A stretch of 64,000 bases of DNA from Tubulanus polymorphus (GCF_964204645.1 NC_134030.1:18064210-18128209); one strand, 5' to 3'; counted from the first letter of the stretch, positions 23,901 to 48,835 are shown. A program made the numbers and translations. Notes: a model not told the origin generated them from the sequence alone.

Positions 23901-23980
23901 TGGATAACTGTCACATAAATTTACACTATTTACAAATTCTATAACATAACAACAACTTCGAGATACAAGGACAGTCCGGT

Positions 23981-24799
23981 CTACGAATTGTACGCAAAGT
24001 CCCTCCGCTGGTTCCTAGTGGCTGTCCATCGGTACGCGGTCACGGTTTTCGCGGTAACGAGTTTGTCCCGTACAAAGAAAGCTTGTTTTCCGTTCGCTTT
24101 CGCGGCTCTCAGCTCGGGTAGCTTTTCGCGTCGTCTCGCCGCCCATTCCTCAGGCACCTGTTCATTCAGTCCTAAAGACGAGCCCGCGAGATTTTTCGCA
24201 ACTGAACGTACCAGTTCACGATCTTTGAAGAACTCGAATTTTGCAACAATTGGGCGCGGTTTTTTCTGTTCGTTTTTCCTTCGTCCAAGGCGATGTGTTC
24301 ACGCGAATTTGAATGAGTCCACGGTCGTCTTCGGTAACTTAAGGTCTTTCTCGCAAAAGCCTTTAATTAAGTCCTCGGTATTCTCATTTTCGGATTCCTC
24401 GACGCCGTAAAAGATCAAATTATCGCGCATGCTACGCCATTGCTGATCTAGGAGTAGTTTATGGTCCGATTTGATAATTGCGTCCTGATCAGCGACGACT
24501 TTCTCTAAATCGCGAACTTTGCTTCTAAGTTGTTCGTTTTCACTCTTTAGTTGTAATACGTCCTGGTGGCAAAATTCAAGCGATTGTTTAACTTCGGTCA
24601 TGTCCCTCTGCAAGTCGTCTAGAAGCTCTAATTTCGAAAGCTGGGAAAGAATCGCATCAAGTTTTGACGATATTCCATTGTCTGCTTCCACACGTGATGC
24701 CGTTTCCTCAGTCGATTTATGATTCTGGCGATTCGGACGATTTGATGCTGCAGTCTTCTGCTTCTTGTTAGGGGGTGAAACACTTTGTCTTCCCGCCAT
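23981..24799 (-). pseudogene. LINE ORF1 (coiled coil + RRM-like), one premature stop at 24299-24301
   Basis: Coiled coil, then SMRDNLIFYGVEE; reading through the TGA gives THRLG..PRPIVAKF..FKDRE..V..LNEQVP..RRREKLP, typical ORF1p motifs. Confidence 0.85.
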
Positions 24800-25393: not shown

Positions 25394-28227
25394 TTAACTT
25401 GATTGCATAAATTCTCGATATATTCGATCTACATCTATTTTTACTCTCAGTCTTTTATTGAGTTTTTTAAGTTCTGATATGATGTTATCTCTCGTCGTAT
25501 CGGGGTCGGTGCTCCAGCAGCCGATATGCAGGTCAGAAAGATGCGGAAGATTATCGATTAATTCGACGATTGATTTGACGAATAAATCGATATCGTGCTG
25601 TGTATTAATCGGCGCTGTGCGTAAATTGCAGAACTTTAACCAGCGAATTGATGAGACGTGTTTTAGTTGTTTTAAGATGCAATTGTCCTGTTCCGGTCTA
25701 TCAAGCCCGCTATCAATACTGACTACTCGCAGCTGATTTACCGCATCTGATGATAGATACCGAACAAGTGCGTCACCATCAGCTTCTGACCGCAATACTA
25801 TTGATAATACAGTCAGCCGCGGCAGGTGAGCTAGAACGCGGTTTGATTGTAAATAAAATCCGTCAATGACAAGACGCTTTAGTTTCCGCATTAAACCGAC
25901 GCTATCACTGATTGCTACATGTTGATCTGTCGTTAGTTCGCGTAGTTCGCGCAGTTCGCGCAGTTCGCGCAGTCCGAGCAATCCGAGCAGTCCTCGCAGT
26001 CCGAGCAGTCCGCGCATTTCGTACGGTTCGAACTGAATTGATTCGATGTGTGAAGATTCTAACGCGTTGTTAAAATCTTTTAATCCCTCCGAACCGATCA
26101 AATTCTTATCGAATTTTACTCCACTAAGATGTAAGCTTTTCAAACTCGGAATGATGTTTATCAGCTCTCTCATCTTATTTCTATCGAGCTGATATCCCCG
26201 CGACCTGAGATATAGAAGTTTTAAGGATGGATACGATTTGTGAATATTGACTGAAATATTACCTAAACGTTCCGCACTAACACCAGTAACTCCAGTATCA
26301 ATAATCAGACTCTCCACTGTATTGTGTGTGTTAGTATCACCACTGATCAACTGCGCGTCAGCTCCAGATTTAATCACGTGACTTGTCTTAATCCAATCAT
26401 TATTGAGTTTCTTGTAACATTCACCAGTGTCGTTGAATTCATCTCGCCACACAAACCAGTTTATACTGTTACTCTTCTTACACATAGTCAAGCACTGATC
26501 GGGTATTGGTGACCACCTGCGTGTATCTATTATCATACCGTGAAGACTAGTGTTACTCGCTATGGCTGTTTCCAATACACGGTATTCGTCGGGTTTCAGT
26601 TCGAAAATACCTTGTATGTAAACTACCTCGATCTGACATTGTTTGTGTTCTAGTATTTTTGCGAGCGCGTTTATCCACGATCTGCTATACGCAGATACGA
26701 TCAACATTTTCTGCATGTAGGGAACTATTTCACTAATGGCGTCGTCCGGCCAGTCGGCTTCATTCAGGCATATTGACAACTGTTCAGATAAAACAGTTCT
26801 TTCGGATCTTTCGAGTTCGATGAAGCGTTCGTAATCGGGGATGAGCGCCATCTCCCTAGTAACCGTACCCAAGAAATGGGACTTCACTATTGTGACTGCT
26901 TTTAAATGTTCATCTATTAAAGTCTTGGAAAGTTCACCGAGGCCGCGGTTATACTTGAAACGATACAGCAGCCCTGCCATGAATCTCGGGTATAATTCAC
27001 CATATTTCACAAGTTCGTCCTGTAGTTGATCAAACGCGCATTTATTCCAGGGTATTTCACCACTGTTGTTGAATTGCACGACCGAGTGTACCGCCGCCAG
27101 AAATTCGTGCACAGATTTGTGTATGAACCGTAGCTGGACGGAGCGGTCTGATTTCCGTCGCGGCGACACCTCTTTGCACGTCAAAGCCGTCCTCTTCGAT
27201 TCGTCGAGTTTGAGATGATTTTCGCTGAAGCTGTTTTGATGCTCGATGAGCGTCTTATATGCGACTTGACAAATTTCTTTAAGCGCTTCAGAATTTTCGA
27301 TGTCCCCAAAAAAACATTCCTTCGACAAGTCGAGGCCCTCGCGTTTACTGATCAGAAAACATGTCAAATCGATGTAGATATCGGTGAGTTTTGATGGTAT
27401 CGTAATTTCTTCCTCGTCCATAAACAGACAAAAAAACATATGTAGTATCAGCGGGTTGTAGTAGATACTTTCAAATATAGGTGGCACTGCGTCTTTAAGC
27501 TTGCGGAATAGCAAATATGGATTGCGCTCGGGGAATTTTCTCTTCATAATATCGATGACTTCTTCTTGTTCGAAGCCGGATATCGATACAACGGTGAATT
27601 TGGGATCAGTGACGATCTTGCTGCCCCCGGACTCACGTGTTGTTATGACGATATGCGCTTTCGGTAATTTATTGGTCACGTGTACGATATATTCCTTCGC
27701 TTTATCGTTTTTCAACTCGTCGAAGCCGTCTAGAAAAAATAACGCTTTTTCTGCATTTTCCCGTAAGAATTCTTTAAAACCATCAATCGGCAGAACCTTT
27801 CTGATTTCTGGATTCAAAAGATTTTCGTAAATGTACGTATAAATACACGCGTTATCAGCGGGCAGTTCATTTAACGGTATATAGAATAACATAGGAAACT
27901 CCGTTGTTGATGTTGTCCAGGTTAACACTTGATTAACAATCTGAGTAGTTTTACCCATACCGGGTTCACCCACGAGGCACACGGGTTTCATAGCACGCTT
28001 GTCATGAGTGAAAAGCTTCTTGAAATCATCAGGTAAAATCACTGGCGGCTCCTCACTTTCTTTATTTTCCTTCGGGTTTCGTTTTTGGGCTCGAATTTTC
28101 GCGTGTTCTTGGGTGAAGAAGTCGTTGAAATTGGTGACGTCATCGCTCCACCAAACCTCTTTGTAATTTTCAACATCGATCATTCGTTTATACGTTTCTT
28201 TCAGGCTCTTCTGAACTTGAGTAACAT
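25394..28227 (-). CDS. NLR-like immune receptor, main exon (NACHT NTPase + C-terminal LRR-like region)
   Basis: Walker A GEPGMGKTT, Walker B LFFLDGFDE, sensor-1 IVITTR, NPLIL, winged-helix FIHKSVHEFLAA; repeated LxxLxL motifs C-terminally. The track's TTG start lies in an intron; acceptor TTCATTTTTACAG|ATGTTAC at 28228/28227, phase 1. Confidence 0.9.
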
Positions 28228-29312
28228 CTGTAAAAATGAATTCAGTTTTAGAATTTTTCAATTGATTTAAGAAATTACGTTAAAATTGAATGATGAAAAA
28301 AAACCTGTCTGATCACATCACAACACATCGCAACAGAAAATACCAAGCAATTAGGAAGCTACAGGTCTCGGAATTTAGACCAAAAATATGTACAAAAAGG
28401 TCTCAGGACGGCCATCGTGAGACCGATCGACCCAATTTTAACTTTTTCTTATGCTGATGTGCGCTGTGGAGATATATACTTATAAAAGATAAAGGATATT
28501 GATTAAAGCCATTCCAATATTTGATGAATTTTCATTATAAGTAATTTGTTTATAATTAAGATTGAAATTATGTTATTTTCGTTTTTCAATTCTCATGTTA
28601 ATCAAATCATTGTAACCTTTAGAAAGTATCAAATCATCATTTCTTTCTTTAAAGGGAGTTTCAAGAATATTCATTATTTTTTCATCAATTACCTTCATAA
28701 TCCTAAACTGTATTGAATATTTTAGGATTTTTGGTGCCATTATGGAAAGTATCTATTAGTTCAGTAATTAAATATGTTTCATTTAATAGTATTTGATTAA
28801 TTACAGTAATATTATCTATATTATTTTGTCTTCCATTAACTAAATTTGTTGCTGAGATATATTTTTTAATGTTTAAAAGTGAAAATAATTCATTGGTTTC
28901 ATTTATTTCAATTTTATATTCAGTTTCTTATTCTTCTTTCTTCATCTATAACAAAACTTTTATTAAAAAAATTTTTTTAGATATTTTATATTTAAAGATA
29001 TAACTTATACAAATGTAAACATTCTATGTTATAAATCTATATTATTTTACTAACACTTTACTCACACTTATTCATATAAAAAAATTTGAGTAATTCACTG
29101 TTTTTTTTAGTGAAGGAATATAATTTTATAGTAAAAACATAGTAAATCTAAATTATTTTGCTAGCACTTTACTCACTCTTATCTATATATGAGGTCTTTA
29201 AGGTATTTAGGAGCCGCACCATGGATACACTTGAATACTTGTATAATGTTTTTAGTTAATAAATTTAACAACTAAAAACATAATATATCTATACCATATA
29301 TGAAATTATTAG

Positions 29313-31372: not shown

Positions 31373-32347
31373 GAGGCGCACACTCGACAATCTGACATCG
31401 AAATGTAACCTGCATCGGTTTCTTTCAAGGATTTTATGTTGAGAAGCGAACAAGTGTAACATGTAAAACTTTCATTGATTAGACTAATGACATTTTAATA
31501 CCTGCGCTACACTTTATCTAGACTTTCTGACGAATTCACATGATGATGAATGTTTAATATAATTAGTGATAATAGGTTTTGAAGATAAAATGATAAGAAT
31601 TTAGTATATTAGAGCAGTTCAAAAGTCGAAATTTAGACACATCAGAAACAGCAATAAAGAAGCAGAAACACAGAAATCTTCTTGTGGTTAGTTTGTCGTA
31701 TAGCCATTTTACGTAGAAAAAAAACTGTGTCAGCAAAAGACAGACTTATGTTAGATATTGCAACGAGAAGACTTGTATCTAAAAATGCCTGAATACTTTC
31801 TTAATTTGCTGGACCAGCGACCAGCAATCGGGAGCTCATCTATAGACCAGTGGAATATCGCGAATTCGCGCTCGCGCATACATGGAACTAGCCAGCGATT
31901 TTTCCTTCGAGCTTTTTGAGCATTGAAATGAAACTGTTTTCCTCCCACAACCAAACCGAGGAAATTGTGAAGACAAAAAAGAATTCAAACGATATTTTCT
32001 CTAAAACGAGAACATATCACGTGGCACTTTGGATGCGTATTCTAAAATCGTACACATCGATGTAAGGGTAGGACTATTAGGTTTTAGGAGAGAAAGTCTT
32101 ATGTCTGAACTCAACTAACGCATGCTTAAAGATCGCGCTCATTTATCAAAAAATAATTTTCCATCGCTTGACGTAGCGGGGAATATTGCAACGTTTCTGC
32201 TACAATCGCCTATAGTCGACAGTACTGTAACGCGCTATTCTATATGATATTTGCCCTGTTTTGGACCTAAATCTACTCTACTGCCTTTATGTATTGTTAA
32301 ATCTTTGAAGTCTAGATTAATGTTCCCCTCGTTGTCTACTTTCGATG

Positions 32348-32417
32348 AGTAATTGGAAAAGTGGGCTTTCAGATCAGAGGGCGAGAGGGCAAGACACCAC
32401 TCATCACCACAAGTAAT
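32348..32417 (+). repeat. Polinton left TIR
   Basis: AGTAATTGGAAAAGTGGGCTTTCAGATCAGAGGGCGAGAGGGCAAGACACCACTCATCACCACAAGTAAT; reverse complement at 49145-49214. Confidence 0.95.
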
Positions 32418-32432
32418 TTTTTTCCCTAATAA

Positions 32433-35400
32433 ACGGGGGAGAATGAATACCAGCCAGAAAACAATAATGTTAATAAAAATCAATATTATTGCACATATTG
32501 TAAAAAATACGTCGATACATCTCATAAAACACGACATGAAAAAACTGCAAATCATATAAAAAATGTAATAGATTTTGAAACTCCAGAAAATTCCAATGAA
32601 AGAAAAGAAAGATTAGAAAATATGAATGTGGATGAAATAAAATGTGAAGTTTGTAATGAATTTATAGTAAAAAGGAATTATAATAGACATCTCGAATCAC
32701 AAAAACACAAACAAAATTTAAGTAATAATGTTTTAGGAAAAGATTATTTCGATGATTAACCTCAAAAAGTAATAAAACCAACTTCAAAAACTAAATCCAT
32801 TTCAAATAAACCTTACATGGAAAATGTTAGAAATTATATTGATTCACTAGAAATAAAAGATACAATTGAAATTTTAGAAACATTACATAGTAAAATTGGT
32901 CCTGCAGCTATTATATTTAGATTTTTTAAAGGTACAACAATAGGAGATTATAGTAAATTTAATGAAATAATAGAAAAAATACTAGATTTTATAACAGATG
33001 TTGAATATCCAAAAATTAGTATCTCTGGGAAAGTAAGTTTTATAAAGTCAGAAGAAAAAATTAATTATAATATTCAAACACACTCTGAAGAAATAATTTC
33101 AAAAACACAAATAAAAGAAAAGTTAGAAAAAATATTTAATGAATTTAAACGTCATATTGAAGAAAGATATTTTGAGGGTTCTGGCTTAACATTGAATGAA
33201 ATTATATATTTAGATTTAAATGTTTATAATACAAAAAGAAATAAAACATCAAAAAGTAATAAAATGTTTAAAAATGATTCAAACTTTACAACAGAAAAGG
33301 ATATTAAAGCATTATCTTATATTAAATTACCATTTACAACAAAAGCAGTAATAAATATTCAAAATGAAGATAATAAATGTTTTCTATGGTCAATTATTAG
33401 TTGCTTACATCCAACACAGGAAAATGTTTGTAGAATAACAGATTATCGGAAATATGAAACATTACATAAAATTGATCAATATCCAGTAACTATAAAAATG
33501 ATTTCTAAAATAGAAAAAGTTAATAATTTAAAAATAAATGTATTCGAATTAATGCAATTACCAAAGACAAAAGGTGAAAATATTAAAGATTATACATTGG
33601 AAGCTTTATATTTAACAGAATATTATGATGATGAAAATGCTATAGATTTGTTATATTACAAAGAAGATGAAAATGAACATTATATGTGGTTAAAACAAAT
33701 TGATTTATTCTTTAGAACAGAAAGTGATCATCATCATAAAAGTTATCTATATAGAAAATGTTTATCTAAATTTATGACTGAGAATACATTATTAAAACAT
33801 AAAGAATTATGTGATAATAAAGATTTTTGTAAATTAATAATGCCAACAGAAAAAGATTATAAATTGAAATTTACTAATCATAAATTTAAGAATATTGTTC
33901 CATTTGTAATTTATGGGGATTTTGAATCGTTGAATAAAGAATTAACTGATCAAGATAGAAAAGAAATATATAACAAAAAGCAATTATTAAAATCAATGGA
34001 TAAAGGAAATGAATTAAATGAAGACACAATACAAGACCCACCAATTATAAATACAATTAAAAAAGTTCATCAAAGAGCTGCTGCTTATGGAATTTATATA
34101 AAATCAAAATATCCTGAATTATATGAAAGTCAATATATTTCTTTTAGAGGTGAAGATGTAGTTAATGATTTTTGTAACAAAATGATTGAATTAGGAAGTG
34201 ATTTTGCAAAATTATTAAACAAAAATAAAAGAATAGTTATGACAAAAGAAGATGAAATTGATTTTAATTATGCAACTCATTGATGTTATTGTGAAAAACG
34301 TTTTTATTCATTTGATAAAAAAGTTAGAGATCATGCTCATTTAAATTCAAAATATCGTGGAGCTGCTCATGAAGATTGCAATTTACAAGCTAAGAAAGTT
34401 AATTTCGTACCAATATTATTTCATAATTTATCAGGCTATGATACCCATCTATTTATAAAACAATTATCGGGAAAATTGGGCGCAATTAATCAAGAAATAG
34501 AAGAATATAATGCTATGAATGGTGTAAATGTAAGAAAATATGATTTTAAACTATTAGCTAAAACATCTGAAAATTATATTTCATTTCAATTTGGTTGCAT
34601 TAGATTTTTAGATTCTTATAGATTTCTAGCAAGTTCATTAGATAATTTATCAAAAAGTTTAGTTGATAATGATTTTGTTATAACTCGATATTATTATCCA
34701 AATGACCAAGATTTTAAATTATTGAGATACAAAGGTGCAATTCCTTATTCATTTTATAAAACACACAATGATTTTAATGTAACAGAATTATAAAAAGATC
34801 AATTTTATGATCAATTAAAAGAGGAGTATGTGAAAGACGAAGTGTTTAATAGAACATTAAATATTTGGAACCATTTTAAGATGAAAAATCATGGTGAATT
34901 AGTTGATTTATATTTAAAATCAGATGTTATGATATTGGCTGACATATTTGAAAAATTTAGAGAAGTTAATTTGAATCATTTTAATGTTGATCCTTGTTAT
35001 TGCTACTCTAGTCCTGGTTTTACCTGGCAATGTGGTTTAAAATATACAAATGTAGAATTAGATTTATTAAAAGAACCAGATATGGTTTTATTATTTGAAA
35101 AATCAATTAGAGGTGGAATTAGTGGTGTTATGGGAGATAGGTATTTTAAAGCAAATGATGAATATAAATTATTATATATTGACGCCAATAATTTATATGG
35201 TTGGGCAATGATGCAACCTCAACCATATAAAAATTTTATATTAACAGAAGTTGAAAATGATGATAAAACTAATTGGGAAAGCGCAATTATGTGTTTAGAA
35301 GATGAAGCAGCAATTGGTTATTTCTTTGTAGTTGATTTAGAATATCCTGAAAATATAAAGTTTAAAACAAGAAACTTACCTTATTGCCCAGAACATTTAA

Positions 35401-37583
35401 CCGTAGATGATAGTTATTTAAGTGAATACCAGAAGAAAATAAAACCGAAAGATCATGTTTTTACAGAAAAATTAATACTTACTCTAAATAATAAATACAA
35501 TTATATTGTTCATTATAGAATGTTAAGATTTTATCTAAAACAAGGAATGAAATTAAAGAAAGTACATAGATATATTGAATTTAATCAATCGAAGTGGTTA
35601 GAAAAATATATAGATTTCAATACTCAACAGAGAACCATATCAAAAACAGATTTTGAAAAAGATTTCTTCAAATTAATGAATAATAGTTTTTATGGTAAAA
35701 CATGTGAAAATATTAGAAATAGAAATGATATTGAATTAGTAAATAATTCTGAAAGATTAAGACATTTACAATCAAGTCCTAGACATTTAGGAAATAAAAG
35801 ATTTGAAGATTATTTAACAGCAGTTAAATTAAAAAGAACGTCAATGAAATTTAATAAACCTATATTCATTGGTTCAACTGTTTTAGAAGTATCAAAATTA
35901 TTAATGTATGATTTTTATTATAATGTTTTACAACCACTTTTTGGGGAAAAGCATATTGAAATATTATGTTTTGATTCTGTAACAGCTGACACCCCAATAT
36001 TGTTAAAATGTAATGATAAAATATTGATAAGAAGAATTTCATAAATAATTCAAAAACAAAATGAATGTTATATTTCATATGGTGAAAAAGAATTAATACA
36101 AATAAATGGATTAATGGATGGTTGGACAAGAAATGGATGGAAAAAATTAAAGAATATTATCTGACATAAAACAAATAAGAAAATCTATAGAGTTAGAACT
36201 AAATTAGGGTTTGTAGATGTTACAGAAAATCATAGTTTAATTAAACGAAATGGCGAAGAAATAAAACCAACTGATATAAAAATTGGAGATGAATTATAAC
36301 ATAAAAGATTTTTCCAAAGAATGAATCATATGTCATTTGATGAAATAATTGACAATATTTATAACATAGAACCCGAAACTTTTGAAGAAAAAGAATATTT
36401 TATCAAAGGATTTTTCATGGGAGATGGTTCAGCAGGTGTGTATAATTATGTTTGGGGTAATAAATATTGCTGGTATTTATGCAATCAAGACTTAAAATTA
36501 TAAGAAAGAATTAAGAAATTCTGTGAAGAAGTTTATTCACATAAAACATTCAAAATCATAGATGTTATGAAATCATCAGCAGTTTATAGAATACTTGTAA
36601 ATAATCCTAAAGATTTTGCTATAAAATATAATTATGAATTCATGCAATAGTGAAAAGTAATACTTCAACAAAAGAAAAGATAGTACCAGATTATGTATTA
36701 AATGCAAAAAAATAATTTAAGAAAGTGGTTCTTCATTGGATTCTATGCCGCAGATGGCACTAAAAAAATTACAAAGGATAAAAAGATAACATTTGCACAG
36801 AAAGGAAAAGTTGCTATATCAGGATTAAATATATTAAGCAGTTCATTAGGATTTAATATGAATATAGAATTAAATAAATCTAAACCAAATTGTTTTAATT
36901 TAAGGCATGTAGAAAAAGAATTAACAGAAGAAGTTAAAGATTTATTTGAAATATATAACCCATCAGATTATGTTTATGATTTATCAACTGAAGATGGAAC
37001 ATTCAATTCTGGGTTCCCATTAATCCAAAAAAATACTGACAGTTACATACTAAAAATCAAGACAAATGACATAAAAAAAGACTTAAAAACATTAAAACAT
37101 CATTTTGATTATCCCAAAGATCATGCACTATTTAGCAATGATAATAAAAAGATTCCTGGTAAATTTAAAGATGAATTAGGGGGTGATGAAATGATTGAAT
37201 TTGTTGGGATAAGAAGTAAAATGTATAGTTATAGAACAAAAGATCATGAAGCTAAAAAGTTAAAAGGAATAACAAAACATGTGGTTGATAAACATATAGA
37301 ATTTCAAGATTGTAATTCAATTGTAATGAAACATAAAATGAATTGTTTAAGATCAGAAGATCACGAGATGTACATTAATGAAGTTGAAAAAACTAGTTTG
37401 AATCCATTTGATGATAAAAGGCATATTTTAGATGATGGTATAAAAACATTACCTTATGGTTATCAAAACATACAATCAATATCATCATACTCGAATTCAC
37501 TATTGGCTTCTTCATTTTTATTTAATTGTTCTTGTATAATTTGTTTAGGTTCTTCTTCCATTTCATTTATCTCATTTAAATAA
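32433..37583 (+). pseudogene. pPolB: Protein-primed family B DNA polymerase with N-terminal C2H2 fingers, vOTU-like protease region, EndoVII insertion and intein; multiple premature stops
   Basis: ORFs 32817, 34476, 34830, 36321 and 36702 share one frame. Motifs NEDNKCFLW..HY, YGDFES (ExoI), VRDHAHL..YRGAAHEDCNL (EndoVII), FHNLSGYD (ExoII), FLDSYRF, YLKSDV (ExoIII), SIRGG, YIDANNLYG, KLMNNSFYGK, D/TDS, GKFKDE, RSKMY, KLKGI. Inferred start is a mutated ACG at 32433. Confidence 0.93.
35976..37034 (+). mobile_element. Intein with LAGLIDADG homing endonuclease in pPolB motif C (decayed)
   Basis: ILCFD|SVTADTPILL (block A); VDVTENHSL (block B TxxH); GFFMGDGS and GFYAADG (LAGLIDADG helices); YVYDLSTEDGTF (block F); IQKN|TDS (block G, +1 Thr). 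Removing it restores D-TDS. Confidence 0.92.
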
Positions 37584-38800
37584 AGTTCTTTCTTGTTCCA
37601 CATTTCATCTCGCTCTCTTTGTTTCTTTTTGTTTGTTAATTCGTCAAATGGAATTATAATATCGATGTTTAAATAATTTACAATCTTATTTAAAAAGAAT
37701 TCATAATTAATTGAATCTGTTATTCTATTTTCCAAATAATACATTAATATTTGTTTAAATATTTTTTTTATATTTTCCATATCTTCTTCTGTTAATTTAG
37801 GTTTTTCATAATAATCGTTAAATAATAAATATAAATACATTTTCTTTTGTTTTTGTTAAATGTTGACGGAATAATTGTTTTTATAATATCTTTTTTAGTT
37901 ATTTCACCATTTTTATTTTCTATTATTTTCATTTTTTCAAGCCATTGCATATATTCTGGTGTATGATCTTCTATAGAAAATATTTTAAAAATTTCATCTA
38001 GATAATTTAATTTTGGTTCTATGAGAAAATTTCTAGTTTTTTCTTCACCCCATGAATTCTTTTGCCATCCACAATCCACAATCAACACAAAATAACACAG
38101 TACCTTCTTGTCTTAAGGTCGCGTAATTACATTGTGGACATTTTCGTTTATAATTTATTGGTAATAGATCTTCATTAAGCTCTTGGTATTTTCTTACATT
38201 TTCTTTATGTTTTATTGTTCTATTATGTAGATTTGAATTACTTGTTGTAATAATCAATTTACAATATTTACAATAATATGTTTTTCTTGTTAATTCATTA
38301 TATTGTTTTTCTAACTTTTCAACTGTTTCTTTATTATCTGGTAACGTTTTCTCATATTTTATTTTTTCTAATAAATTATTTTTTCTTTCATTGAATTCAG
38401 TTTCAAATTTATTAGAAATATTATCTATATGTACTTTACGAAATTGATGATTCTCCCAATCTTCTATATTTTCAGGGCTATATTTTATTCGACAAGGCTC
38501 ACAGAAATGATCTTTTATATTATCCTTATCATAGAATAAGAAAGGTCTTTTCCAAATAATTTCAGGTTCAACTTCAACAGAATTACTATTACTTTCGTTA
38601 CTATCAACATTAGCCGTTGCGCCATTAATTTTACACTTCTCTGAATGTTTTTTAACATAATTTCTTGAGAATAATTTATTACATTTTGGACAGTTTAGTT
38701 TAGGGGGTTTATAATTTTCATCATGTTTTTTCATATGTCGAGCCATATTACTTTTTCTTAGAAGTTCACCACAAATTTCACATGCTATCTTCTCATCCAT
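37463..38800 (-). pseudogene. Polinton multi-C2H2 zinc-finger protein, split by frameshifts into ORFs 38045-38800, 37792-38088 and 37463-37840
   Basis: CEICG..RHMKKH, CPKC..KH..KC, CEPC..H...H, CKYC..H....H, CPQC..CVDC. A CCACAAT duplication at ~38069-38082 coincides with a frame change. Confidence 0.75.
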
Positions 38801-38858
38801 TTATTAGGGAAAAAAATTGCCTGTGGTGATGAGTGGTAATTTTTTTATGTTATAAATA
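38801..38858. promoter_or_regulatory. Putative bidirectional Polinton promoter containing the TIR-shared CCACTCATCACCAC motif
   Basis: The motif also occurs at ~32397-32417, 48851-48871 and 49145-49165. T-run/TAAATG-type starts face both directions. Confidence 0.6.
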
Positions 38859-39960
38859 ATGGTAGAATTAAAAGAATACAGAATATTTGTTGATTCTAGA
38901 AGACTTACAAATTATAAATCTCATAATTTACTAGTACAATTAGATAGAGAATTTAAGAATTGTGTAGATTTAAAATTAGTTAATATAAGTGTATGTAACT
39001 CATTTTACAATAAATCGGATAAAAGTTTTGAACATAGAGGGTTTATGATTTATATGAGAAATAAAGATAAATGGTTTCATATATTTTTAAAACCAGGATT
39101 ATATAATTTAGAATCATTAGCGCAGGAAATTAATAGAAGAGCTCGGTTGAAAATCGGGGGCATTTCTGTATTTGAAATTAAATTTAATAAAATTGATAGT
39201 ACTAATAAAATAAGAATAAAGATATCTAATGAACAACATAAATTTATGGTAAACAAACCACTGGCTAAAATGTTAGGAATTAAACCGCTTACAGTTACTG
39301 GAAACGCAGAAGGCAGCTCAAATATAATACCTTTTACACACTTTTATATTTTTTTTTGATCATAGATTGTTTATGATTCATGATAAAAATATGGATAAAT
39401 GGTATCATCTATTTCTAAGACCAGGATTATATAATTTAGAAACATTATCTCAAGAAATTAATAGAAGAGCTCGGTTAAAAGTGGGTGAATCTGTTGGGTT
39501 TAACATTAAATTTAATAAAATTGATAGTACTAATGAAATAAGAATAAAGTTAACTAATGAACAATATAAATTCATAGTAAGAAAACCATTAGCTTAAATG
39601 CTAGGAGTTAATCCAAATAAAGTTTATTCAAATGTTGATACTACGCCAAATATAATACCTTTTACGCACTTCTATATTTATTGTAATTTAATTGATCCTA
39701 CAAAAACATTCGAAGCAACTAAAGATACAATTTGTAATTCTGGTTTATTAAATATTTTACCATTAAAAAATGTCAAACAATTTGGAACTCAAATAAATTA
39801 TAATTTAACTGAATGTGATTTCAAACCTTGTATTCCACATTTCAATAATTTTGAATTAGAAATAAGAAATCATAATGGTTATTTAATTGATTTGAATAAC
39901 TTTCCTGTAATTTATGAATTAGTTATAAGATGTAGAGTAATTTTTTCACTATATAAATGA
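38859..39960 (+). pseudogene. Minor capsid protein (penton-like) with duplicated internal module
   Basis: N-terminal IFVDSR...L...NSFYN and C-terminal YIYCNLI...LLNILP...FELEIRNHNGYLIDLNN fit Polinton/PLV single-jelly-roll penton patterns; frameshift at ~39359 and stop at 39595-39597. Confidence 0.65.
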
Positions 39961-40316
39961 ATATAACTGTTGGACCGAGTATATGTTTTGGATTTGATTT
40001 TAAAGGTGAGAAAGAAATGAAATTTAACATTAATGATGTAATTACACATATCAAAAATATTGCATTTTCTAATGAAACAACATTTGAGTATGAAAAAACA
40101 ATAGATAAAGAAACTTTAAATGTAGAAAAGATAACTAATTTAATTAGAGAATCTTTAAGATTTTATGAATTAGATGAAGATTTTATAATCGATGATATTA
40201 AAAACATATTAACGGAAATATATGATAATCATAAAAGTAGTAATGAAATAAATGTTGAATTAATCATCACTAAGATAACTAAATATTTTGAAGATAGTAA
40301 TTTTTTTGATAAATGA
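39957..40316 (+). CDS. Polinton hypothetical protein (acidic)
   Basis: Intact ORF preceded by TAATTTTTT..TAAATG. Confidence 0.6.
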   Translation: MNITVGPSICFGFDFKGEKEMKFNINDVITHIKNIAFSNETTFEYEKTIDKETLNVEKITNLIRESLRFYELDEDFIIDDIKNILTEIYDNHKSSNEINVELIITKITKYFEDSNFFDK

Positions 40317-40538
40317 ATGAGTGATAATAAGTGGATAATAACTGGATTATATAATGGAGCATTACTATCAGTTGGAACTGTTGGTTATTCAATGGTATTA
40401 AAAAAGGTCTTCAAAATGGGAAGTGTTAATGTTGATAGATTTGATATAAATGATATCTTAAAATTAACATTAGCAGTTACTTCATCTAATTTAACTATTG
40501 ATTATTTAGAAAAACAAAAATATATTCCTCCCATATAA
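40317..40538 (+). CDS. Polinton small hydrophobic protein
   Basis: Intact 73-aa ORF with the shared upstream motif and two hydrophobic segments. Confidence 0.6.
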   Translation: MSDNKWIITGLYNGALLSVGTVGYSMVLKKVFKMGSVNVDRFDINDILKLTLAVTSSNLTIDYLEKQKYIPPI

Positions 40539-40562
40539 ATACATAATTTTTTTGCTAAATAA

Positions 40563-40985
40563 ATGGCTTCTGCAATTATAACTACTATAGGATCGGCAAT
40601 TGTTAACGCTTTAGCATTTACTGGTGGTGGTTATTTATTTAAACATATTGATAAAAATAGTTCATTAGGAGAACAAAGAAGACATAACTTAGCATTAGAG
40701 AAATATAATAAAGCAGCAGAAGAATACAGAGAAAAACGACAAAACTATATGGATTATATTAACAAGGAATTATATGATCAGAAGATTTCACATAGAGATT
40801 TTCAATCAGTTGATGATGCAATGAGTTTATATAACGCAGTAACCAATAAAGAAAAATTACATCTATACAAACCTAAATTATCAGATTATTATACCCCAAG
40901 TAAAGAACAACAGAAATATGAAATAATTTGGATTTTAGGTGGAACAGTTATTGTTATATTTGTAGCATATAAATTTACTAATTAG
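40563..40985 (+). CDS. Polinton protein with N-terminal amphipathic/Gly segment, coiled coil and C-terminal TM
   Basis: MASAIITTIGSAIVNALAFTGGGYLF...EQRRHNLALEK...IIWILGGTVIVIFVAY; shared upstream motif. Confidence 0.65.
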   Translation: MASAIITTIGSAIVNALAFTGGGYLFKHIDKNSSLGEQRRHNLALEKYNKAAEEYREKRQNYMDYINKELYDQKISHRDFQSVDDAMSLYNAVTNKEKLHLYKPKLSDYYTPSKEQQKYEIIWILGGTVIVIFVAYKFTN

Positions 40986-41004
40986 TAATTTTTTTTCTAA
41001 ATAA

Positions 41005-41439
41005 ATGGAAGATAAAGTTGATAGTATTGATATTATTCCTCATGATATAAATAAAACTAAATTAAAAATATATTTAGAAAAACAAATATTAGAATTTGAA
41101 GGTGACTTAAAGATAAAAAAGAAAAAATATTTAAAAAGTAAAATTATATATTATCTTATTATTAGTGGTTCGGTTACAATTAGTTCTGTAATAACATTTC
41201 TAGCAATATTCAGTCCATTAACACCTTTAGCTATATCAATCGGTGTATTAGGATTAAGTTCAAGTGTTTTAACTGGTATAAGTTCAAAATTAAATATAAA
41301 AAGTAATAAAGAAAAAATTAAAACTAATATAAAAGAAATTAATAAATTGAAGAATACACTAGATCATATAATAAGTTTAAATGGTCATATAACAGTTGAA
41401 GAACAAGATAAATTATTAAAAGAATTAATAAATTATTAA
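41005..41439 (+). CDS. Polinton two-TM protein with flanking coiled coils
   Basis: Two hydrophobic helices at aa ~48-94; shared upstream motif. Confidence 0.65.
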   Translation: MEDKVDSIDIIPHDINKTKLKIYLEKQILEFEGDLKIKKKKYLKSKIIYYLIISGSVTISSVITFLAIFSPLTPLAISIGVLGLSSSVLTGISSKLNIKSNKEKIKTNIKEINKLKNTLDHIISLNGHITVEEQDKLLKELINY

Positions 41440-41455
41440 TTTTTCAATTAAATAA

Positions 41456-42867
41456 ATGGTAGATGGTTTTCCAAAAGCTTTCCAATATAATAAATAAATT
41501 AAATATAATATTCCAGCAATAGATTTTAATAAAGATATTACATATAGAAATGAAGTTTTAGATTCATTAACTAATTTAGAAATTTATGTTACTGAAACTA
41601 ATAATTTTAGTGCAAAGATGGAAAATATATTTCATGTATATTTAATTAATTTAAAAAAATTGAAAGATGAAAAACAATGGTTATTAAAATCTAATATGAA
41701 GTATTGGCAGAACCAATTAAATTTTGCTGTTTATTGTGCAACAACAGGATGTGGAATTAGTTGGAATGATCATTTGAATAATTCTAAATATGAATTAATT
41801 CAAAGTTTATTTAGATTTCATACATACTTTCAAATCAGAATAATATTAAATGAATTAGAGTGCGCTTTACCAGGATCTAGGTATTTTAAAGAATTAGATA
41901 ATAATATTAATTTATCAAAGTTTTTTAAAATTTGTAATGAATTTAATATAGATATAAATAATTCTGATTTTAGAACAAAAATTGGAACAATAAGATCACT
42001 TCCTTGCCCTAAAAAGATTGCAGAATATTGTGCACTTCCCATACCATCTAATAGTTTGTATAATATCTATAGTAATAAATTAGGTTATGGTAAAATAGAA
42101 ACTAAGGATTTAGAAACATTAAATTTCAATAAATTACCGACATTTTATGATAATTTAAAACAAGAAAACAATAATGGTTGGGTTTATTTCATTTTAGAAA
42201 ATAATGAAGGTTTTACAAAATCAGGTATACAAAGAATAAATCAATCTATTAGAACTTATTTGATATGTATTTTAGGTGCGCAAGTTGAAACAAGATCCCC
42301 AATAATTGGAAATTTAAATACATCATTTGATACACAGAAACAATTCAAAGTATTATTTGAAGATTCTATTCATAATGATAAAAATAGATCGATTCCAGAA
42401 AACATTGTGAGATATCAAAATTATTTAGATAAATCACATATTAGACTAAATTATTGTATAGGCCCTAATCTATTTATTATTTCTAACGATTTAGTATTAA
42501 AGATGGGAAACATAATTGGTTATAATAATCTAATTAAAACTGCAACAATAAATAATTCATTTGGATTAAATGATATAAATAAAAAGATTATTACTGCTCC
42601 AAAATTAATGGAAGGTGAAAAAATAAAAAACACATTCAATCAACAGAAACTAAAACTAAAAATATTAAATTGCATAATGATTCTAAAATAAAAGATTACA
42701 ATACATCAGAAAATATAAAAACTGATAATATTCAACATGATATAATTAAAACTGATAATGATAATAAATTCCATGAAAATACTAAATTAGCTTTAACTTG
42801 TACAGGAATTGTTATAGGAGGAATATTATATTTTAAATTTTATTTTTTATTATATAAATGGATGTAG
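41456..42867 (+). pseudogene. Polinton hypothetical protein (WQNQLNFAVYCATTGCG) with C-terminal TM; early stop and late frameshift
   Basis: TAAATG start at 41456 is in frame with ORF 41618; continues in ORF 42670..42867. Confidence 0.6.
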
Positions 42868-44289
42868 AAGGTGGAGAAGATATTGGAATGGATCCTTTAG
42901 ATGAAACTGGTATAACTGATGAATAACAACCTGATTTTAGTGAAACAAGTTTTAATGACGGTAATGAGCCAGGATATAATAATAATTTAAATATGCCTGA
43001 TTATATTTAAAATGCAGAATCACAATTAAATCCTGAAAATTTAGACCCAGATTTAGTAAAACAAGATTTAGATAATTTAAACAAAATAGAGAAATTAGAA
43101 TATATAATTGAAAATTCTAAACTTAACATAAATGATTAAGACGTTGGACCTTTAGCAGATAAATTAAGATTTTTAGATAATGGTAAATGTTATTATCGTT
43201 TGAAAGGTGATTATTATATTGATATCTCTTATAAAAAAGAAGAAAAAATAATAGCAAAATCAACTTTAAAAAAAATTAAAACCAGATAGAATTAAAATAA
43301 TAAGTAATAGTAATGAAATAACTGATGTTACACAAAAAGAAATAGATGATAATATAGACGTATTTAAACAAAAAATTAATGAATTATTTGAAATAATCAA
43401 AAAGAAATCAGAAACAGAAACAACTTCTGAACAGAATAAAACTTCCAAAACTAATAAACTTAATTCAAATAAAGTTCCAATTGAAAAACTTTTACCGAAT
43501 GGATTAATTGATGCAACAGATCAAGAATTAGAAGATTTAAATAATATATTTTCTGATAAAGCAATTAGAGAAATTGAAAGTATAAGACATGCATCTGATA
43601 AAATTGCGCATGATAAAAGTATAAGAGATTTAAAAATTAGAACTTTAGAAGATGAATTATTTAAATCAAGAAAAGAATCGGAACAAGTAAAATTAGATAG
43701 AGATAATAAAGTTATTGAAGAAATCGAATTTAAAAAAAGAAATGCGTATTTAGAAAAAGAAAAAGATGATTTAGAATATAACATAGAATTACAAAAAGAA
43801 GAAATCAAATTATTATCAAAATCATATGATTATAATATTAATAGATTAAAAGTTATTTTTAAAGATTTATTGATAAAACCAAATTCTGAAATATCATTGA
43901 AAGATAGAATAAAGTTATTATTTAAATTAGAAGGAATAACAATTCTTTCAATTCTAACAGCTGTAACTATGTTATTTACAACAATAGGTTTAGCAATATC
44001 AAATGCTTTAAAATCTACTCCTACTCCCAATAAACCGGATAAACCCCCGAATGATAATTCTATACAAGATAAAGTTAAAGATGGTTTAAAAAAATTAGCA
44101 AAATATCTATGGGAACTATCTAAAAAATCTGCTGCAGCTTTACCAGGAATTATTGCATCAATTGTTGGTTTTATATTGAAATCTGCTGGGAATATTCTTT
44201 ACTTTGCTGCTGAACATATTATTTTAATTTTAATTACAGTTGTAAGTGCTATTATTTTTGGGTTAGTGAATATGATTAAAAATAAATAA
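42858..44289 (+). pseudogene. Polinton acidic/coiled-coil protein with C-terminal hydrophobic helices; several stops
   Basis: TAAATG start MDVEGGEDIGMDPLDE...; C-terminal GITILSILTAVTMLFTTIGLAI...ALPGIIASIVGFIL in ORF 43870..44289. Confidence 0.6.
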
Positions 44290-44309
44290 TTAATTTTTTT
44301 GTTAAATAA

Positions 44310-45561
44310 ATGAGTGGGAGTTATATAAGTCCTTCTAAGATTTCTAGAATATCTAATGCTATTAAAGCAGAAAGATCACATCATATAATTACTCATAATC
44401 CTTCAAATATTAATCCCGATGAAACTTTATATGTTAGAATTCCTAGATTAACACAAAATACTTTTTATGTTCCAAATAGTATTTATTTATCAGCTGATAT
44501 AAAAGTAATTGGTCATGATAATAATTATGTTGTTGATAATGTTGGGAGATATTTGATTAAAAAATTAACTCTAAAGATTGGTCCAGAAACAGTTTTCTCA
44601 TTAGATGATTATAATTTATTTATGCATTATAAAGATTTATGGTTAACTAAAGAAAATAGAAATAATATGATATTTCAGGGTATTCAATCGGAAAACCATA
44701 ATAAAATAAGATCAGGAGCTAATGACGCAATAGTCACTCGTGCCACAGATAATTTGATTAAAAAGATTTATGGAAGCAAATATAAAATTCCATTAGACTT
44801 TGAATTGATAAATAATAATGCACCTTTATATAAATACGCAATTCAAGAAGATATTATATTTGAGATAACATTTGCTCCTGTAAATGAAATTGTATTATCT
44901 AGCGTTGTTAAAGATATGGGTTATAAATTATCAAATATATGTTTAGAATATGACACAGTAACTAATGAAAATATTGCTAGCACAATTCAAACTCAATACA
45001 ATCAAGGATTTTCATTATTTTATGATTATATTGATAAATTTAAAACTGTAACTATTAATGCAAATTATTCTCAAATGAATTAATGAGAATACTAACTTCC
45101 CAAGAAGATCTATTAAAGGTAAATTAATATTTTTTACCATTGCAACAAATTCTAATGGCGCAATAAAGGTTGATAATTATTATAATCCTGAAATAACAAA
45201 AGTAGAAATAACTATCGAAGGAATAGCAAATAAAATATTTTGTCAAGGAATGAGAATGATAGATCAGTGGCCAGAAATTAGAAAACATTTTATGAATGAA
45301 AAAGTAAAATCATTTGAAAATTGTAATATTAATCAAATTGATTATTATACCGGCAATAAATATGCATTATGGTTAGATTTTAGAACAACAGAGGATAATT
45401 CATTACATGGTTCTGGGAAAAAACTACAAAATACTAAAGATGGAATACAATTATTCATGACAAAGAATAAAGGAATCAAAAATTTCAAAATGCACATTTA
45501 TATTATATCTGACGCACAATTAAATATTGTAAATTCACAATTAGATAGTATTCAATATTAG
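44310..45561 (+). pseudogene. Probable major capsid protein (double jelly-roll), frameshifted at ~45083
   Basis: About 415 aa in total, beta-rich pattern (NPSNINP..TLYVRIP.L, LIKKLTLKIG, YKIPLDF, LSNICLEYD), adjacent to integrase and ATPase. Fold inferred, not verified. Confidence 0.6.
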
Positions 45562-45591
45562 AAATATAAAGTTAAAATTAAGGATATATAA

Positions 45592-46719
45592 ATGGGTGGT
45601 AAAAAAACTCCTAATACTAAAGAACAATATTTAAGAAATTTATATTACAACCCTGAGTGTTCGGTTGCTTATTCTTCTACTAAAAACATATGGCGTCAAG
45701 TAAAACAAGATAAATTAGATAAGACAATCCCACAAAATTTAGTTAAATATAAAGATATAAATGAATTTATGTTAGAACAACCAACATACACAACACATAA
45801 AAAAATTGTTAGAAAATATAAAACTCGTAAAACTATGGTAAGTTATGTAGATCAACAGTGGCAAGGAGATTTAATTGATATGAAAAATGTTAAGAAAGAT
45901 AATGATGATTATTGGTGGTTATTGAATATAATTGATATTTTTAGTCGTTATGTATGGAGCTTCCCACTTTATAGAAAAGATGCTGTACAAACATCAAATT
46001 TTTTAAGAAAATTTCTTTCGGATGATAAACTAAAACCAGAAAAAATACAATTTGATGATGGAAAAGAGTTTGATAATTCACTTGTTCATGAACTCTTAGA
46101 TAATCATAATATTAAATATTTTTCAACAAAATCGGATAAAAAAGCAGCAGTTGTTGAACGATTTAATAGAACATTAAGAACAAGAATGTGGAAATATTTT
46201 ACAGCAAATAATACTTTTAAATGGATTGATGTTTTACCAAAATTGATAGAAGGATATAATAATTCTTATCATTCTTCTATTGGAATGAAACCTATTAATG
46301 CTAGAAAACCTGAAAATGCTGAAATTGTTTGGAATAATTTATATGGAGCATTTCTTGTAGATGATTTTGGTGAACCTAAATTTAAAGTTGGTCAAAATGT
46401 TAGAATTTCTAAGTATAAAAAGATATTTGACAAAGGATACGATCGAAATTTTACTAGGGAAATATATAAAATAAAAAAGGTAATAACAACAAAACCATAT
46501 GTCTATAAATTAGAAGATTTAGATGGTGAAGAAGTTGATGGCTACTTTTACGAAGAAGAATTAAGTTTAACTACTGAAAATCTAGAACAAGAATATAAAA
46601 TTGAAAAAGTATTAAAAACAAAAACTATTAAAAGAAAAAAATATTCTTTAGTAAAATGGGTTGGATGGCCAGATAAATTCAATGAATGGATATTATCAAG
46701 TAAAATTAAAAATACATAA
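45592..46719 (+). CDS. INT: Retroviral-like (rve) DDE integrase with C-terminal chromodomain, intact
   Basis: WQGDLIDM (D), IDIFSRY, IQFDDGKEF (D), VVERFNRTL (E), YNNSYHSSIGMKP, FKVGQNVRI; chromodomain YKIEKVL...LVKWVGWPDKFNEWI. Confidence 0.95.
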   Translation: MGGKKTPNTKEQYLRNLYYNPECSVAYSSTKNIWRQVKQDKLDKTIPQNLVKYKDINEFMLEQPTYTTHKKIVRKYKTRKTMVSYVDQQWQGDLIDMKNVKKDNDDYWWLLNIIDIFSRYVWSFPLYRKDAVQTSNFLRKFLSDDKLKPEKIQFDDGKEFDNSLVHELLDNHNIKYFSTKSDKKAAVVERFNRTLRTRMWKYFTANNTFKWIDVLPKLIEGYNNSYHSSIGMKPINARKPENAEIVWNNLYGAFLVDDFGEPKFKVGQNVRISKYKKIFDKGYDRNFTREIYKIKKVITTKPYVYKLEDLDGEEVDGYFYEEELSLTTENLEQEYKIEKVLKTKTIKRKKYSLVKWVGWPDKFNEWILSSKIKNT

Positions 46720-47145
46720 ATGAATAAGGAATTATTCATATTTGAGCCTCATAATATGTTAATTTCTGGTGTAACAGATTGTGGAAAAACTTATTTTATA
46801 TTAAATTTATTAGAAACTGTTTATAAAAACTGTTTTGATAATATAGTATTATTTTGTCCAACATATGAATTTAATCAAACTTATGATAGAAATATTACTA
46901 GAAATAATAAATTTATTATATTAGATCCTAAAACAGTAAAAGAAAATTTAGATAATTGTATTAAAATAGCAATTGATATTTATAAAGGATCAAATACATT
47001 ATTCATTATAGATGATTGTGCTAATCTACATGATTCAAAAGTTAGAGAAAGTGAGTTATGTTATTTAGCTTTTTCTGGTAGACATTTTGGGATAACAACA
47101 TGGGTTTTAAATCAAAAATATAATTCAATTGTTAAAGACTTATGA
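46720..47145 (+). pseudogene. A32/FtsK-like DNA packaging ATPase, 3'-truncated
   Basis: Walker A GVTDCGKT, Walker B LFIIDD, SGRH...LNQ; ends abruptly at a CTAG-rich repeat. Confidence 0.88.
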
Positions 47146-47155
47146 ATTTATTTAA

Positions 47156-47427
47156 ATTCAACTAGCTTGTTAATCTAGTTGAATTCTAGTTACATTCTAG
47201 TTGAATTCTAGTTATTGGTAGTTGGAACAAAATCAACTAGATTTAACAATATTTTAACTAGCTTGTTAATCTAGTTTAATTCTAGTTACATTCTAGTTGA
47301 ATTCTAGTTGTTAGTAGTTGAAACAAAAATCAACTAGATTTAACAAGAAATAAACAAAAACAACAATATTTCAACTAGCTTGTTAATCTAGTTGAATTCT
47401 AGTTACATTCTAGTTGAATTCTAGTTG
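47156..47427. repeat. Three CTAG-rich direct repeats
   Basis: AACTAGCTTGTTAATCTAGTTGAATTCTAGTTACATTCTAGTTGAATTCTAGTT at ~47160, ~47256 and ~47373. Confidence 0.85.
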
Positions 47428-47458
47428 CAACAACACAACTAATTTATTTGTTATACAA

Positions 47459-47990
47459 ATGGTAGGTGAAAAGAAAATAAAATCTAAAAATGGTGATGTT
47501 CCAATTGAAAAAACTTTAGATGATTTAGGAATAAAAGAAAACAAATTAATTCCAGATGATGGTGCTTTAAATAATGTTACAACAAATAATAATTATGAAT
47601 ATTATCTTTATTGTAAACATCAATTAGAAATATTAATAGCATCTGGAAAATGTAAAAATTTTGTCGGTAAAAATTTAACTTATAATGAATTAGATACAAT
47701 GAAATCAGATGAAATTATTAGATTATTTAAGATTTATGAAGCCGCGAGAACAGCTAGAATTAATGACGCGATATCAGAAAATGTAGTAAAAGGTTATAGC
47801 AAATTATGTAATTATATACTACCAATTGAAGATGAAAATAGATTATATGTTGATTTAAAAAAATGATTATTTAGTTATGACTGAATTAAATAAATGGATT
47901 GGATATTTATCATTTCAATTAGGTGGATTTATGACATTATTATCAACTGGGGTTATAACATTTTCAAATATTGAAAGTAAAAATATTTCT
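47459..47990 (+). pseudogene. Polinton hypothetical protein; frameshift in an A-run near 47860
   Basis: ATG at 47459 after TAATTTATTTG..CAAATG; continues in another frame as NDYLVMTELNKWIGYLSFQLGGFMTLLSTGVITF. Confidence 0.5.
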
Positions 47991-47997
47991 ATAATAA

Positions 47998-48390
47998 GTG
48001 AGCGAGGTGGAAGAAGTGAAGAAAAAACCGAGATCACAGAAACAAATTGAATGGTCTCGGCAATTAGGAATTAAATCACAAGAATATAAAAAAGCTGTAA
48101 AAGAAAAAATAAGTAATAAAAATGTTAATAAAAATAGTGAAAATATTGTTATTTCTAATCCTTCTAATGATAGAATATTTGATAAATGTCTATATTTTAC
48201 AGTTGGATTTGTAATTGTATTCATTTTGATTGGGTGTAATTGGTATAAGAAATCAAATAAAATTCATGATATTAATAATTCTGATACAACTGCTATCAAA
48301 AATGAAAATACTTCTGAAATTCCAAAATTGACAATAAAAAAATGGATTAATATTTTAGAAAAAAAGCAAAAAAATAATTTTTTTAATTAA
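47998..48390 (+). CDS. Polinton basic protein with TM segment
   Basis: TAATAAGTG start (probably a mutated ATG); hydrophobic LYFTVGFVIVFILIG. Confidence 0.5.
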   Translation: MSEVEEVKKKPRSQKQIEWSRQLGIKSQEYKKAVKEKISNKNVNKNSENIVISNPSNDRIFDKCLYFTVGFVIVFILIGCNWYKKSNKIHDINNSDTTAIKNENTSEIPKLTIKKWINILEKKQKNNFFN

Positions 48391-48509
48391 TTGAATATTA
48401 ATTGAATAGCTCACTACTTTTGTCTATCTATGCGGAGCAATTAAATTTTCCAGATAAGTCATTTCGGATTCTAGATATTCATTATTTTTATTAATTTATT
48501 TTTTTAAAT

Positions 48510-48835
48510 TTAATCAACAATTTCTAAATCATGATGTCCATCTTCATTTTTTCCATGATAGATTATTTTAAATCCTTCTAAATCTTTTAATTCCTCTGTA
48601 CTCAATGAAACCCATTTATCAGGTAAAAATACTTTAAATTCTCTCGATGTACTAACATTACAGTAGCTTAAATTAGCTGATACTTTCTCTCCATATTTAG
48701 TTTTTATCTTTTCTAATTTCAATATTTTATGTTCAATTTCTTTTGTAACATCAACTAACTTTTTTATTTCAAATTGTTTTTTGCTGGTTTTATTCTGTTA
48801 TTTATTGTTGCTAAGAATGCTTTTCTATCTCCCAT
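48510..48835 (-). pseudogene. Polinton small terminal protein (~108 aa), 1-nt frameshift in an A-run
   Basis: CCACTCATCACCAC..TAAATG start at 48835 (MGDRKAFLATINNRIKPA); adding one A joins ORF 48510..48722. Confidence 0.6.

Follow-up and report, generated by a model that had tools for sequence, protein, structure and literature searches.

How did the gene of a protein-primed DNA polymerase on a Tubulanus polymorphus chromosome come to be split within its catalytic motif C by 1059 nt, and how does such an insert persist? In the window, the whole stretch of 64,000 nucleotides analysed here, the insert occupies 35976-37034 on the plus strand and comprises 353 codons. It lies between the D and the TDS of motif C, with the junctions ILCFD/SVTADTP...LIQKN/TDS. 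Profiles and motifs assign it to the class-1-type inteins with a LAGLIDADG endonuclease, as a broken copy of the PolB-c allele. The N-terminal HINT part (35976-36310, +), which contains Ser1, block A and the TxxH of block B, matches TIGR01445 (intein N-terminus) over residues 2-88 with 26.3 bits, above the cut-off of 24.5. The LAGLIDADG endonuclease domain (36380-36930, +) carries the two motifs GFFMGDG (block C) and GFYAADG (block E), and matches PF14528 (LAGLIDADG_3) at 27.6 against a cut-off of 22.5. The C-terminal HINT block (36972-37034, +) adopts the 21-residue GFPL form VYD...FNSGFPLIQKN, which starts with the VYD of block F, ends in Asn and is followed by Thr at +1. A match to PF14890 stays below its cut-off in this intein (E 1.2e-5) and lies above it in the relative P0005.

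Comparison of seven Polinton inteins revealed Ser or Cys at position 1, TxxH, the block F Asp, the terminal Asn and Ser, Thr or Cys at +1 in all seven, in addition to GFFxGDG and GFYxxDG with their invariant acidic residues; the penultimate residue is Lys in the T. polymorphus intein and His, Lys or Ser in its relatives. The fold model of an uninterrupted relative, P0154 (pLDDT 87), matches TliVMA, PI-PkoII and PI-PfuI with E-values of 6e-18 to 4e-15, and its best matches among named viral structures are nucleocytovirus DNA polymerases; Megavirus PolB matches a member of the Polinton intein family at 29% in the fold search, compared with 41-46% for the best metagenomic giant-virus inteins, and the particular likeness to the Mimivirus intein stated in the first-pass annotation was not confirmed. 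Judged by these profile, motif and fold matches, the insert is a real HINT and LAGLIDADG intein at the PolB-c site. Its entry frame contains eight stops, four of which are single (36042, 36162, 36297 and 36501), the other four falling within an out-of-frame stretch at ~36640-36710. The first-pass annotation had described the same coordinates, length, junctions and motifs, an intein of this type inserted at D/TDS, and at least four in-frame stops with a local frameshift, all of which the sequence bears out.

The intein-bearing gene belongs to an AT-rich element of 16.9 kb (32348-49214), which the first-pass annotation had rightly taken for a Polinton. Its terminal inverted repeats (TIRs; 32348-32417, +, and 49145-49214, -) are 70 nt long and 97% complementary, and are flanked by a perfect 6-bp target-site duplication (TSD), TCGATG, at 32342-32347 and 49215-49220 (both +). 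Profiles define a protein-primed family B polymerase (pPolB; 32433-37466, +) with an N-terminal zinc finger, an EndoVII-type insert and PF03175; its frame has three more stops outside the intein, and PF02945 was found on close relatives. Downstream lie a major-capsid-like gene split over two frames (44310-45561, +; PF16903, E 0.003), an RVE integrase with a chromodomain (45592-46719, +; PF00665, E 2e-10, and PF00385) and the N-terminal part of an A32-type packaging ATPase (46720-47145, +; PF04665, E 8e-11). The capsid-like gene has Atlas neighbours in the DJR/Capsid_N families at 0.96-0.97, below the strong-recognition threshold of the tool. No penton gene was recognised in the element, and no adenovirus-type cysteine protease among the element ORFs scanned, short or broken ORFs lying outside that scan. 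A 300-nt tandem duplication (79%) lies at 39026-39653, within the region of a DUF5901-like gene.

The chromosomal flanks contain a 961-aa single-ORF NACHT protein (25394-28279, -; E 4e-17), with weak NLRC4-HD2 and LRR matches and with NLRC4 and NLRP2 as the best solved structures (E 0.001-0.1). They also contain an APE-RT LINE with an upstream ORF (20276-24014, -) and an 844-aa DUF1280 ORF (54475-57009, -). No Rfam match was found anywhere in the 64-kb window. The NACHT gene with its weak NLR-type matches, together with the LINE and the DUF1280 ORF, makes an animal host very likely, and the intein-bearing Polinton is thus very likely integrated in an animal genome.

The reads bear on the number and state of other copies, the depth figures being drawn from ~12% of one genomic run (single-organism WGS). 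Depth is ~6 in the left flank, 205 in the intein and 366 in the neighbouring exteins, corresponding to ~30 and ~55 copy-equivalents of intein and exteins, respectively, if the flank is single-copy. At the left terminus, 714 reads exit into differing flanks (agreement 0.35). The Polinton family is multi-copy and integrated in the genome. That the contig is a chimera or a contaminant, an objection anticipated in the first-pass annotation, has a negligible probability: a single contig that covers the left flank extends just 27 nt into the TIR, yet the element has a perfect TSD and its TIRs, coverage of the intein and both exteins comes from three runs of two studies, hundreds of reads carry other flanks at the same terminus, and identical intein junctions recur in many independent proteins. 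At two of the stops in the exteins and three of the four single ones in the intein, 91-100% of reads differ from the assembled sequence, and both ends of the shifted stretch show an indel difference in ~70% of reads. The breaks are thus mostly private to the copy at 35976-37034; short reads cannot prove any copy whole. Depth across the N-junction drops from 439 to 225 within 74 nt, which suggests that the genome also holds empty copies; however, no empty-site joint was found among the 15 joints listed from T. polymorphus reads (62 further joints exist), which makes the empty copies a lead. At 35162-35228, hundreds of reads with loose ends point to a second Polinton subfamily with a different polymerase segment at this position. 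None of the listed runs containing the sequence is recorded as RNA, a fact that is neutral as to expression.

Relatives were compared as protein sequences. The best six of 109 long protein matches are uninterrupted pPolB-borne inteins at the same site with 44-60% identity, and further Polinton-type matches occur among 24 short proteins; altogether, the uninterrupted inteins of Polinton polymerases are 44-64% identical to the T. polymorphus intein. In the protein search, giant-virus PolBs rank after them with at most 41% over the full length, and the best metagenomic nucleocytovirus PolB-c inteins reach 41-46%, with exteins at a background of 20-26%. Polymerases without the intein are far more common: among the 120 nearest to the T. 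polymorphus N-extein, 107 are empty, six carry an intein and seven are unscorable. The four nearest (70-83% identity) have an empty YFD/TDS site, which shows that the intein boundaries are exact. Two 90% clusters contain both full and empty alleles, the empty alleles being 94-99% identical to the full ones. On a 47-row extein tree of hand-picked rows, 11 carriers need 11 changes, no fewer than with shuffled labels.

Several relatives depart from this arrangement. The P0154 cluster (55 members; P0189-P0202) consists of ORFs of ~362-365 aa that are nearly intein alone, with an 11-residue leader and a tail of 4-8 residues, several of them having lost splicing residues; it is possibly a free-standing or decaying amplified family. 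The intein family also occurs in type II topoisomerases (P0047, P0095 and P0342), at a D/TDG or D/CDG site that mimics motif C. Two contigs of archaeal MAGs (L162 and L163, 5001-5984; one of them labelled as Promethearchaeota) bear PolB-c inteins with 33-35% identity to the query, and three from bacterial MAGs (L164-L166) resemble mis-binned giant-virus contigs.

The phylogeny places the T. polymorphus intein within Polintons. All four whole-intein trees recover the Polinton inteins as one clade, with a support of 99 in the quick tree (14 rows), 100/99 and 100/100 with 13 rows, and 100/100 with seven rows. Inteins shorter than 318 or longer than 430 aa, near-duplicates and long branches were omitted from the rows, and a later tree was extended by three longer archaeal and four partial Polinton rows. 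The sister of this clade in the three careful trees is a mostly Imitervirales group (99/90, 98/84 and 98/91), whose members, where a type is known, belong to Imitervirales IM_01 and IM_07 or to Schulz superclades 9-10. Both groups share the 21-residue C-block FN[CSTA]GF[PE]L, present in all 11 Polinton inteins with an end and in nine nucleocytovirus sister rows, and in none of the 44 others. The mixture-model quick tree (92) and the endonuclease-only tree (93/92) instead give as sister a Pimascovirales-type group, related to GVMAG-M-3300007345-7 of the superclade of pitho-, marseille- and iridoviruses, whereas the HINT-only tree again has the GFPL group as sister (89/85) and draws a phage intein into the Polinton clade; nine rows missed by the domain splitter are omitted from the domain-split trees. 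Two endonuclease strands, WxLCNQ and VMKSS, occur together only in T. polymorphus, P0008 and three Pimascovirales-type inteins (66 rows), a hint of a mosaic intein.

Outside Polintons, the nearest relatives are therefore nucleocytovirus PolB inteins, and the kinship claimed in the first-pass annotation stands. Its further claim, a recent and direct transfer from a co-infecting giant virus into the lineage of the T. polymorphus element, does not, since in the trees the intein joins a broad Polinton clade before any other group. We regard such a transfer as very improbable: the four nearest polymerases are empty, so that the gain in the T. polymorphus lineage may be recent, and the pairing of WxLCNQ and VMKSS with Pimascovirales-type inteins would fit it, but the nearest inteins lie in other Polinton polymerases (60-70%) versus 46% at most in giant viruses, and no full-length match above 41% was found in viral and metagenome contigs (34 of the 64 metagenome parts scanned). 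A search of viral and metagenome contigs with P0003 as query found nothing either, and when viral, metagenome and prokaryote contigs were scanned by alignment, no Polinton-type intein turned up in its DNA context. Intein and exteins have the same GC and GC3, and most candidate donors are equally AT-rich, so composition gives no date for the gain; the 18-nt flanks of the insertion agree with giant-virus sites at only about one position in two and point to no particular donor.

For the older transfer from giant viruses into Polintons, the claim fared better in part. Tree shape and the C-terminal signature favour this direction, whereas AU tests reject no alternative: p is 0.39 and 0.72 for Polinton inteins placed with outgroups (in the latter case the constrained tree scored higher) and 0.27 for placement with the Pimascovirales-type inteins. 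A nucleocytovirus origin is likely, the AU tests establishing neither direction nor donor. HMMER found 1023 representatives with an E-value of at most 1e-30, and the top 150 include 141 in RNA-primed PolBs, a biased count, as these are 50%-clustering representatives and those of pPolB clusters may be empty; the viral RNA-primed PolB pool appears the most diverse and is likely the source. A different source, either a phage or another PolB, or a passage from Polintons into the GFPL virus group, seems quite unlikely. It would agree with the AU tests, with the phage-like intein in the HINT-only tree and with two T4/RB69 gp43-like phage polymerases (P0333 and P0334) that carry the same GxPL intein subfamily; against it, this pair nests among the giant-virus inteins, the RNA-primed PolB pool is far more diverse by the count given above, and only one of 50,697 phage records matches, at 27%. 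The gp43-like carriers imply that the intein family crosses polymerase classes readily. Motif C is common to all family B polymerases, and this shared target could let the family jump among RNA-primed viral, phage gp43-like and protein-primed polymerases.

Within Polintons, the intein lineage appears to be both old and mobile. Within the EndoVII-type polymerases, intein identity runs parallel to extein identity (64/60, 50/48, 50/46 and 66/67%), which indicates an old lineage. P0006, which judging by a motif may be a VSR-type polymerase (a sequence search of the PDB gave no confirmation of the domain), is very distant, with exteins of 24-29% identity; its intein is 49% identical to that of T. 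polymorphus and nests among the other Polinton inteins at 99/95, which argues that the lineage jumped between Polinton classes. The first-pass annotation had held that a broad, vertically inherited Polinton clade would speak against recent transfer, and such a picture is found in part, since the intein groups with Polintons and its identity tracks that of the exteins among EndoVII-type polymerases, while the jump of P0006 departs from vertical inheritance. On these comparisons the intein is best described as an old Polinton-resident homing lineage, with no recent jump into the T. polymorphus element.

Residues around the insertion site point the same way. In one cluster, full and empty alleles differ at 8-9 of 20 residues around the site versus 7-52 of 830 elsewhere, in eight of eight comparisons, and the flanks of the full copies match those of full copies from other families at 14-18 of 20 residues versus 11-12 of 20 in their own empty sisters; the 20-residue window was chosen post hoc, and the cluster members are non-independent. 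A Cys five residues before the site is present in 21 of the 25 full sequences and in 5 of the 93 empty ones, which are likewise non-independent. These differences fit co-conversion, resistant empty alleles, or both. The endonuclease is conserved nearly as well as the splicing domain (51% versus 56% over 21 pairs), and the full-length Polinton inteins recovered measure 339-354 aa, with no mini-intein among them. The 107 empty sites of the whole set include YMD/CDS (36), YMD/TDS (31) and YID/TDA (12). In the P0220-P0321 clade, the catalytic motif of empty alleles is unusually variable; variable empty motifs possibly reflect escape from the endonuclease. The patchy distribution, the near-identical empty alleles, the retained endonuclease and the altered flanks all fit homing.

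One ancient gain followed by vertical descent and repeated precise loss, with no homing today, is an unlikely account. It draws on the parallel identities among EndoVII-type polymerases, on the branching order of P0219, then P0005, then P0007/P0177, which is the same in the intein and extein trees, and on a second mixed cluster, in which the empty allele P0135 keeps its flanking residues unchanged beside full copies. However, it needs many precise losses, given 107 empty polymerases of 120, and it accounts neither for the mismatched flanks nor for an intein in a polymerase as unrelated as P0006, nor for an endonuclease that stays conserved, with no mini-intein among the full-length Polinton inteins recovered. 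Compared with loss alone, homing among co-resident copies, combined with resistance and decay, would better explain why the intein is patchy, why the flanks differ and why the nuclease is conserved.

Altogether, we consider it probable that the broken copy in T. polymorphus belongs to a lineage that likely came into Polintons a single time, in the distant past, out of the nucleocytovirus PolB-c intein pool, and that likely persists by homing between Polinton copies. Inteins excise themselves from a precursor by protein splicing, and LAGLIDADG endonucleases cleave empty alleles, which are then converted. A copy free of interruptions would yield a polymerase precursor; judging by residue conservation, Ser1, the His of block B, the last Asn and Thr+1 would then excise the intein and restore the catalytic xDTDS. 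Once released, the endonuclease would cleave polymerase genes that lack the intein at the codons of motif C, and repair off an intein-bearing copy would transfer the intein along with some flanking codons.

Whether the element once relied on a giant-virus helper, as the virophage-like lifestyle proposed in the first-pass annotation implies, is a separate matter. The intein requires just one past meeting of the two DNAs, and is by itself no proof of a virophage lifestyle because the same subfamily also occurs in T4 gp43-like phage polymerases. Another lead comes from the gene starts of the element. A motif scan revealed seven sites with a T-run, a short spacer and TAAATG, at 38800 (-) and at 39957, 40313, 40563, 41005, 42858 and 44310 (+), as exemplified by 40538-40565 (+); a TIR-derived CCACTCATCACCAC motif precedes three of these starts, and related sequence occurs at 32395-32440 and near 48835. 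Shuffled sequence gives a mean of 0.6 sites (0 of 200 shuffles reach seven) and the other 47 kb contain one, the pattern having been defined after the sites were seen; four of five independently named genes start at TAAATG, compared with 45 of 660 ATGs. TAAATG with upstream T corresponds to the poxvirus late-promoter consensus (Table 1 of PMC11423596), and the motif, a putative promoter, resembles the post-replicative promoters of poxviruses. A rival reading is that these starts reflect stop-start packing in an AT-rich genome. We treat them as a lead towards a giant-virus helper, separate from the intein, which may lend the virophage idea some independent support. It is possible, although doubtful, that the intein homes actively among integrated Polinton copies in the animal nuclear genome and selects resistant motif C alleles there, that it is the scar of a nucleocytovirus-helped Polinton with poxvirus-type late promoters, and that endonuclease and splicing parts were swapped with such viruses.

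Since homing needs donor and recipient DNA in one compartment, the intein would record contact between Polintons and large DNA viruses, and also between very distant Polinton classes; it thereby bears on whether animal Polintons ever replicate with a giant-virus helper. The dozens of copies, possibly both full and empty, would allow the homing cycle to be studied under natural conditions in a metazoan germ line, and would be a possible source of a LAGLIDADG enzyme that targets a conserved polymerase motif. The full texts searched (InBase, Repbase, subscription journals and bioRxiv supplements lay outside this search) yielded no description of a Polinton polymerase with a splicing-competent or LAGLIDADG intein, and none of the accessible text of the recent pPolB surveys PMC13215967 and PMC12721341 or of Starrett 2021 (PMC8502044) was found to mention inteins. 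In the accessible text of Green 2018 (PMC5784728), nuclear inteins are listed for fungi, amoebozoa, a choanoflagellate, an apusozoan and a green alga, with no animal among them; 14 inteins are listed for Iridoviridae, so inteins in animal viruses are already known. As far as the literature is searchable and its texts accessible, inteins have so far been unlisted for animal nuclear DNA, or as complete inteins for Polinton polymerases, and the Polinton-resident branch of PolB-c homing inteins appears previously undescribed.

Among known systems, the closest are the nucleocytovirus PolB inteins, which share the Ser start, the Asn end, Thr+1, the LAGLIDADG endonuclease and the D/TDS insertion in motif C. 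The accessible text of Green 2018 counts 67 DdDP inteins in Phycodna-, Irido- and Mimiviridae, and that of Ogata 2005 (PMC549080) names the same splicing residues for the intein of Mimivirus R322, which is 351 aa long compared with 353 aa here. The Polinton intein differs in forming its own clade, in its host polymerase, which is protein-primed and unrelated above background, and in its carrier, an integrating 17-kb chromosomal element. The archaeal PolB-c and DOD inteins (PI-PkoII, PI-PfuI and TliVMA) share the HINT and LAGLIDADG fold and the same polymerase motif, but structural alignments give only 12-20% identity. Compared to the Polintons and adintoviruses described in the accessible text of Starrett 2021, the element has the same TIRs, 6-bp TSD, pPolB, RVE integrase, ATPase, capsid-like gene and size of ~17 kb, and differs in its intein, its TAAATG gene starts and the lack of a recognised protease. 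Nuclease domains within pPolBs are known as well: the accessible text of Jeong 2023 (10.1101/2023.08.22.554363) describes HNH/EndoVII and VSR inserts in Polinton pPolBs, with no LAGLIDADG, and that of Krupovic 2024 (PMC11161782, PMC11071308) suggests that such inserts stem from intein invasions. As described there, those inserts comprise nuclease domains only, with no splicing domain, whereas a complete intein splits the catalytic motif here, and the T. polymorphus polymerase bears this intein and an EndoVII-type insert together. Finally, the eukaryotic nuclear inteins of Prp8, VMA1 and RNA polymerase, as far as the accessible text of the sources describes them, are likewise homing-endonuclease inteins in nuclear DNA; they reside in host genes, whereas the intein described here resides in the gene of a mobile element.
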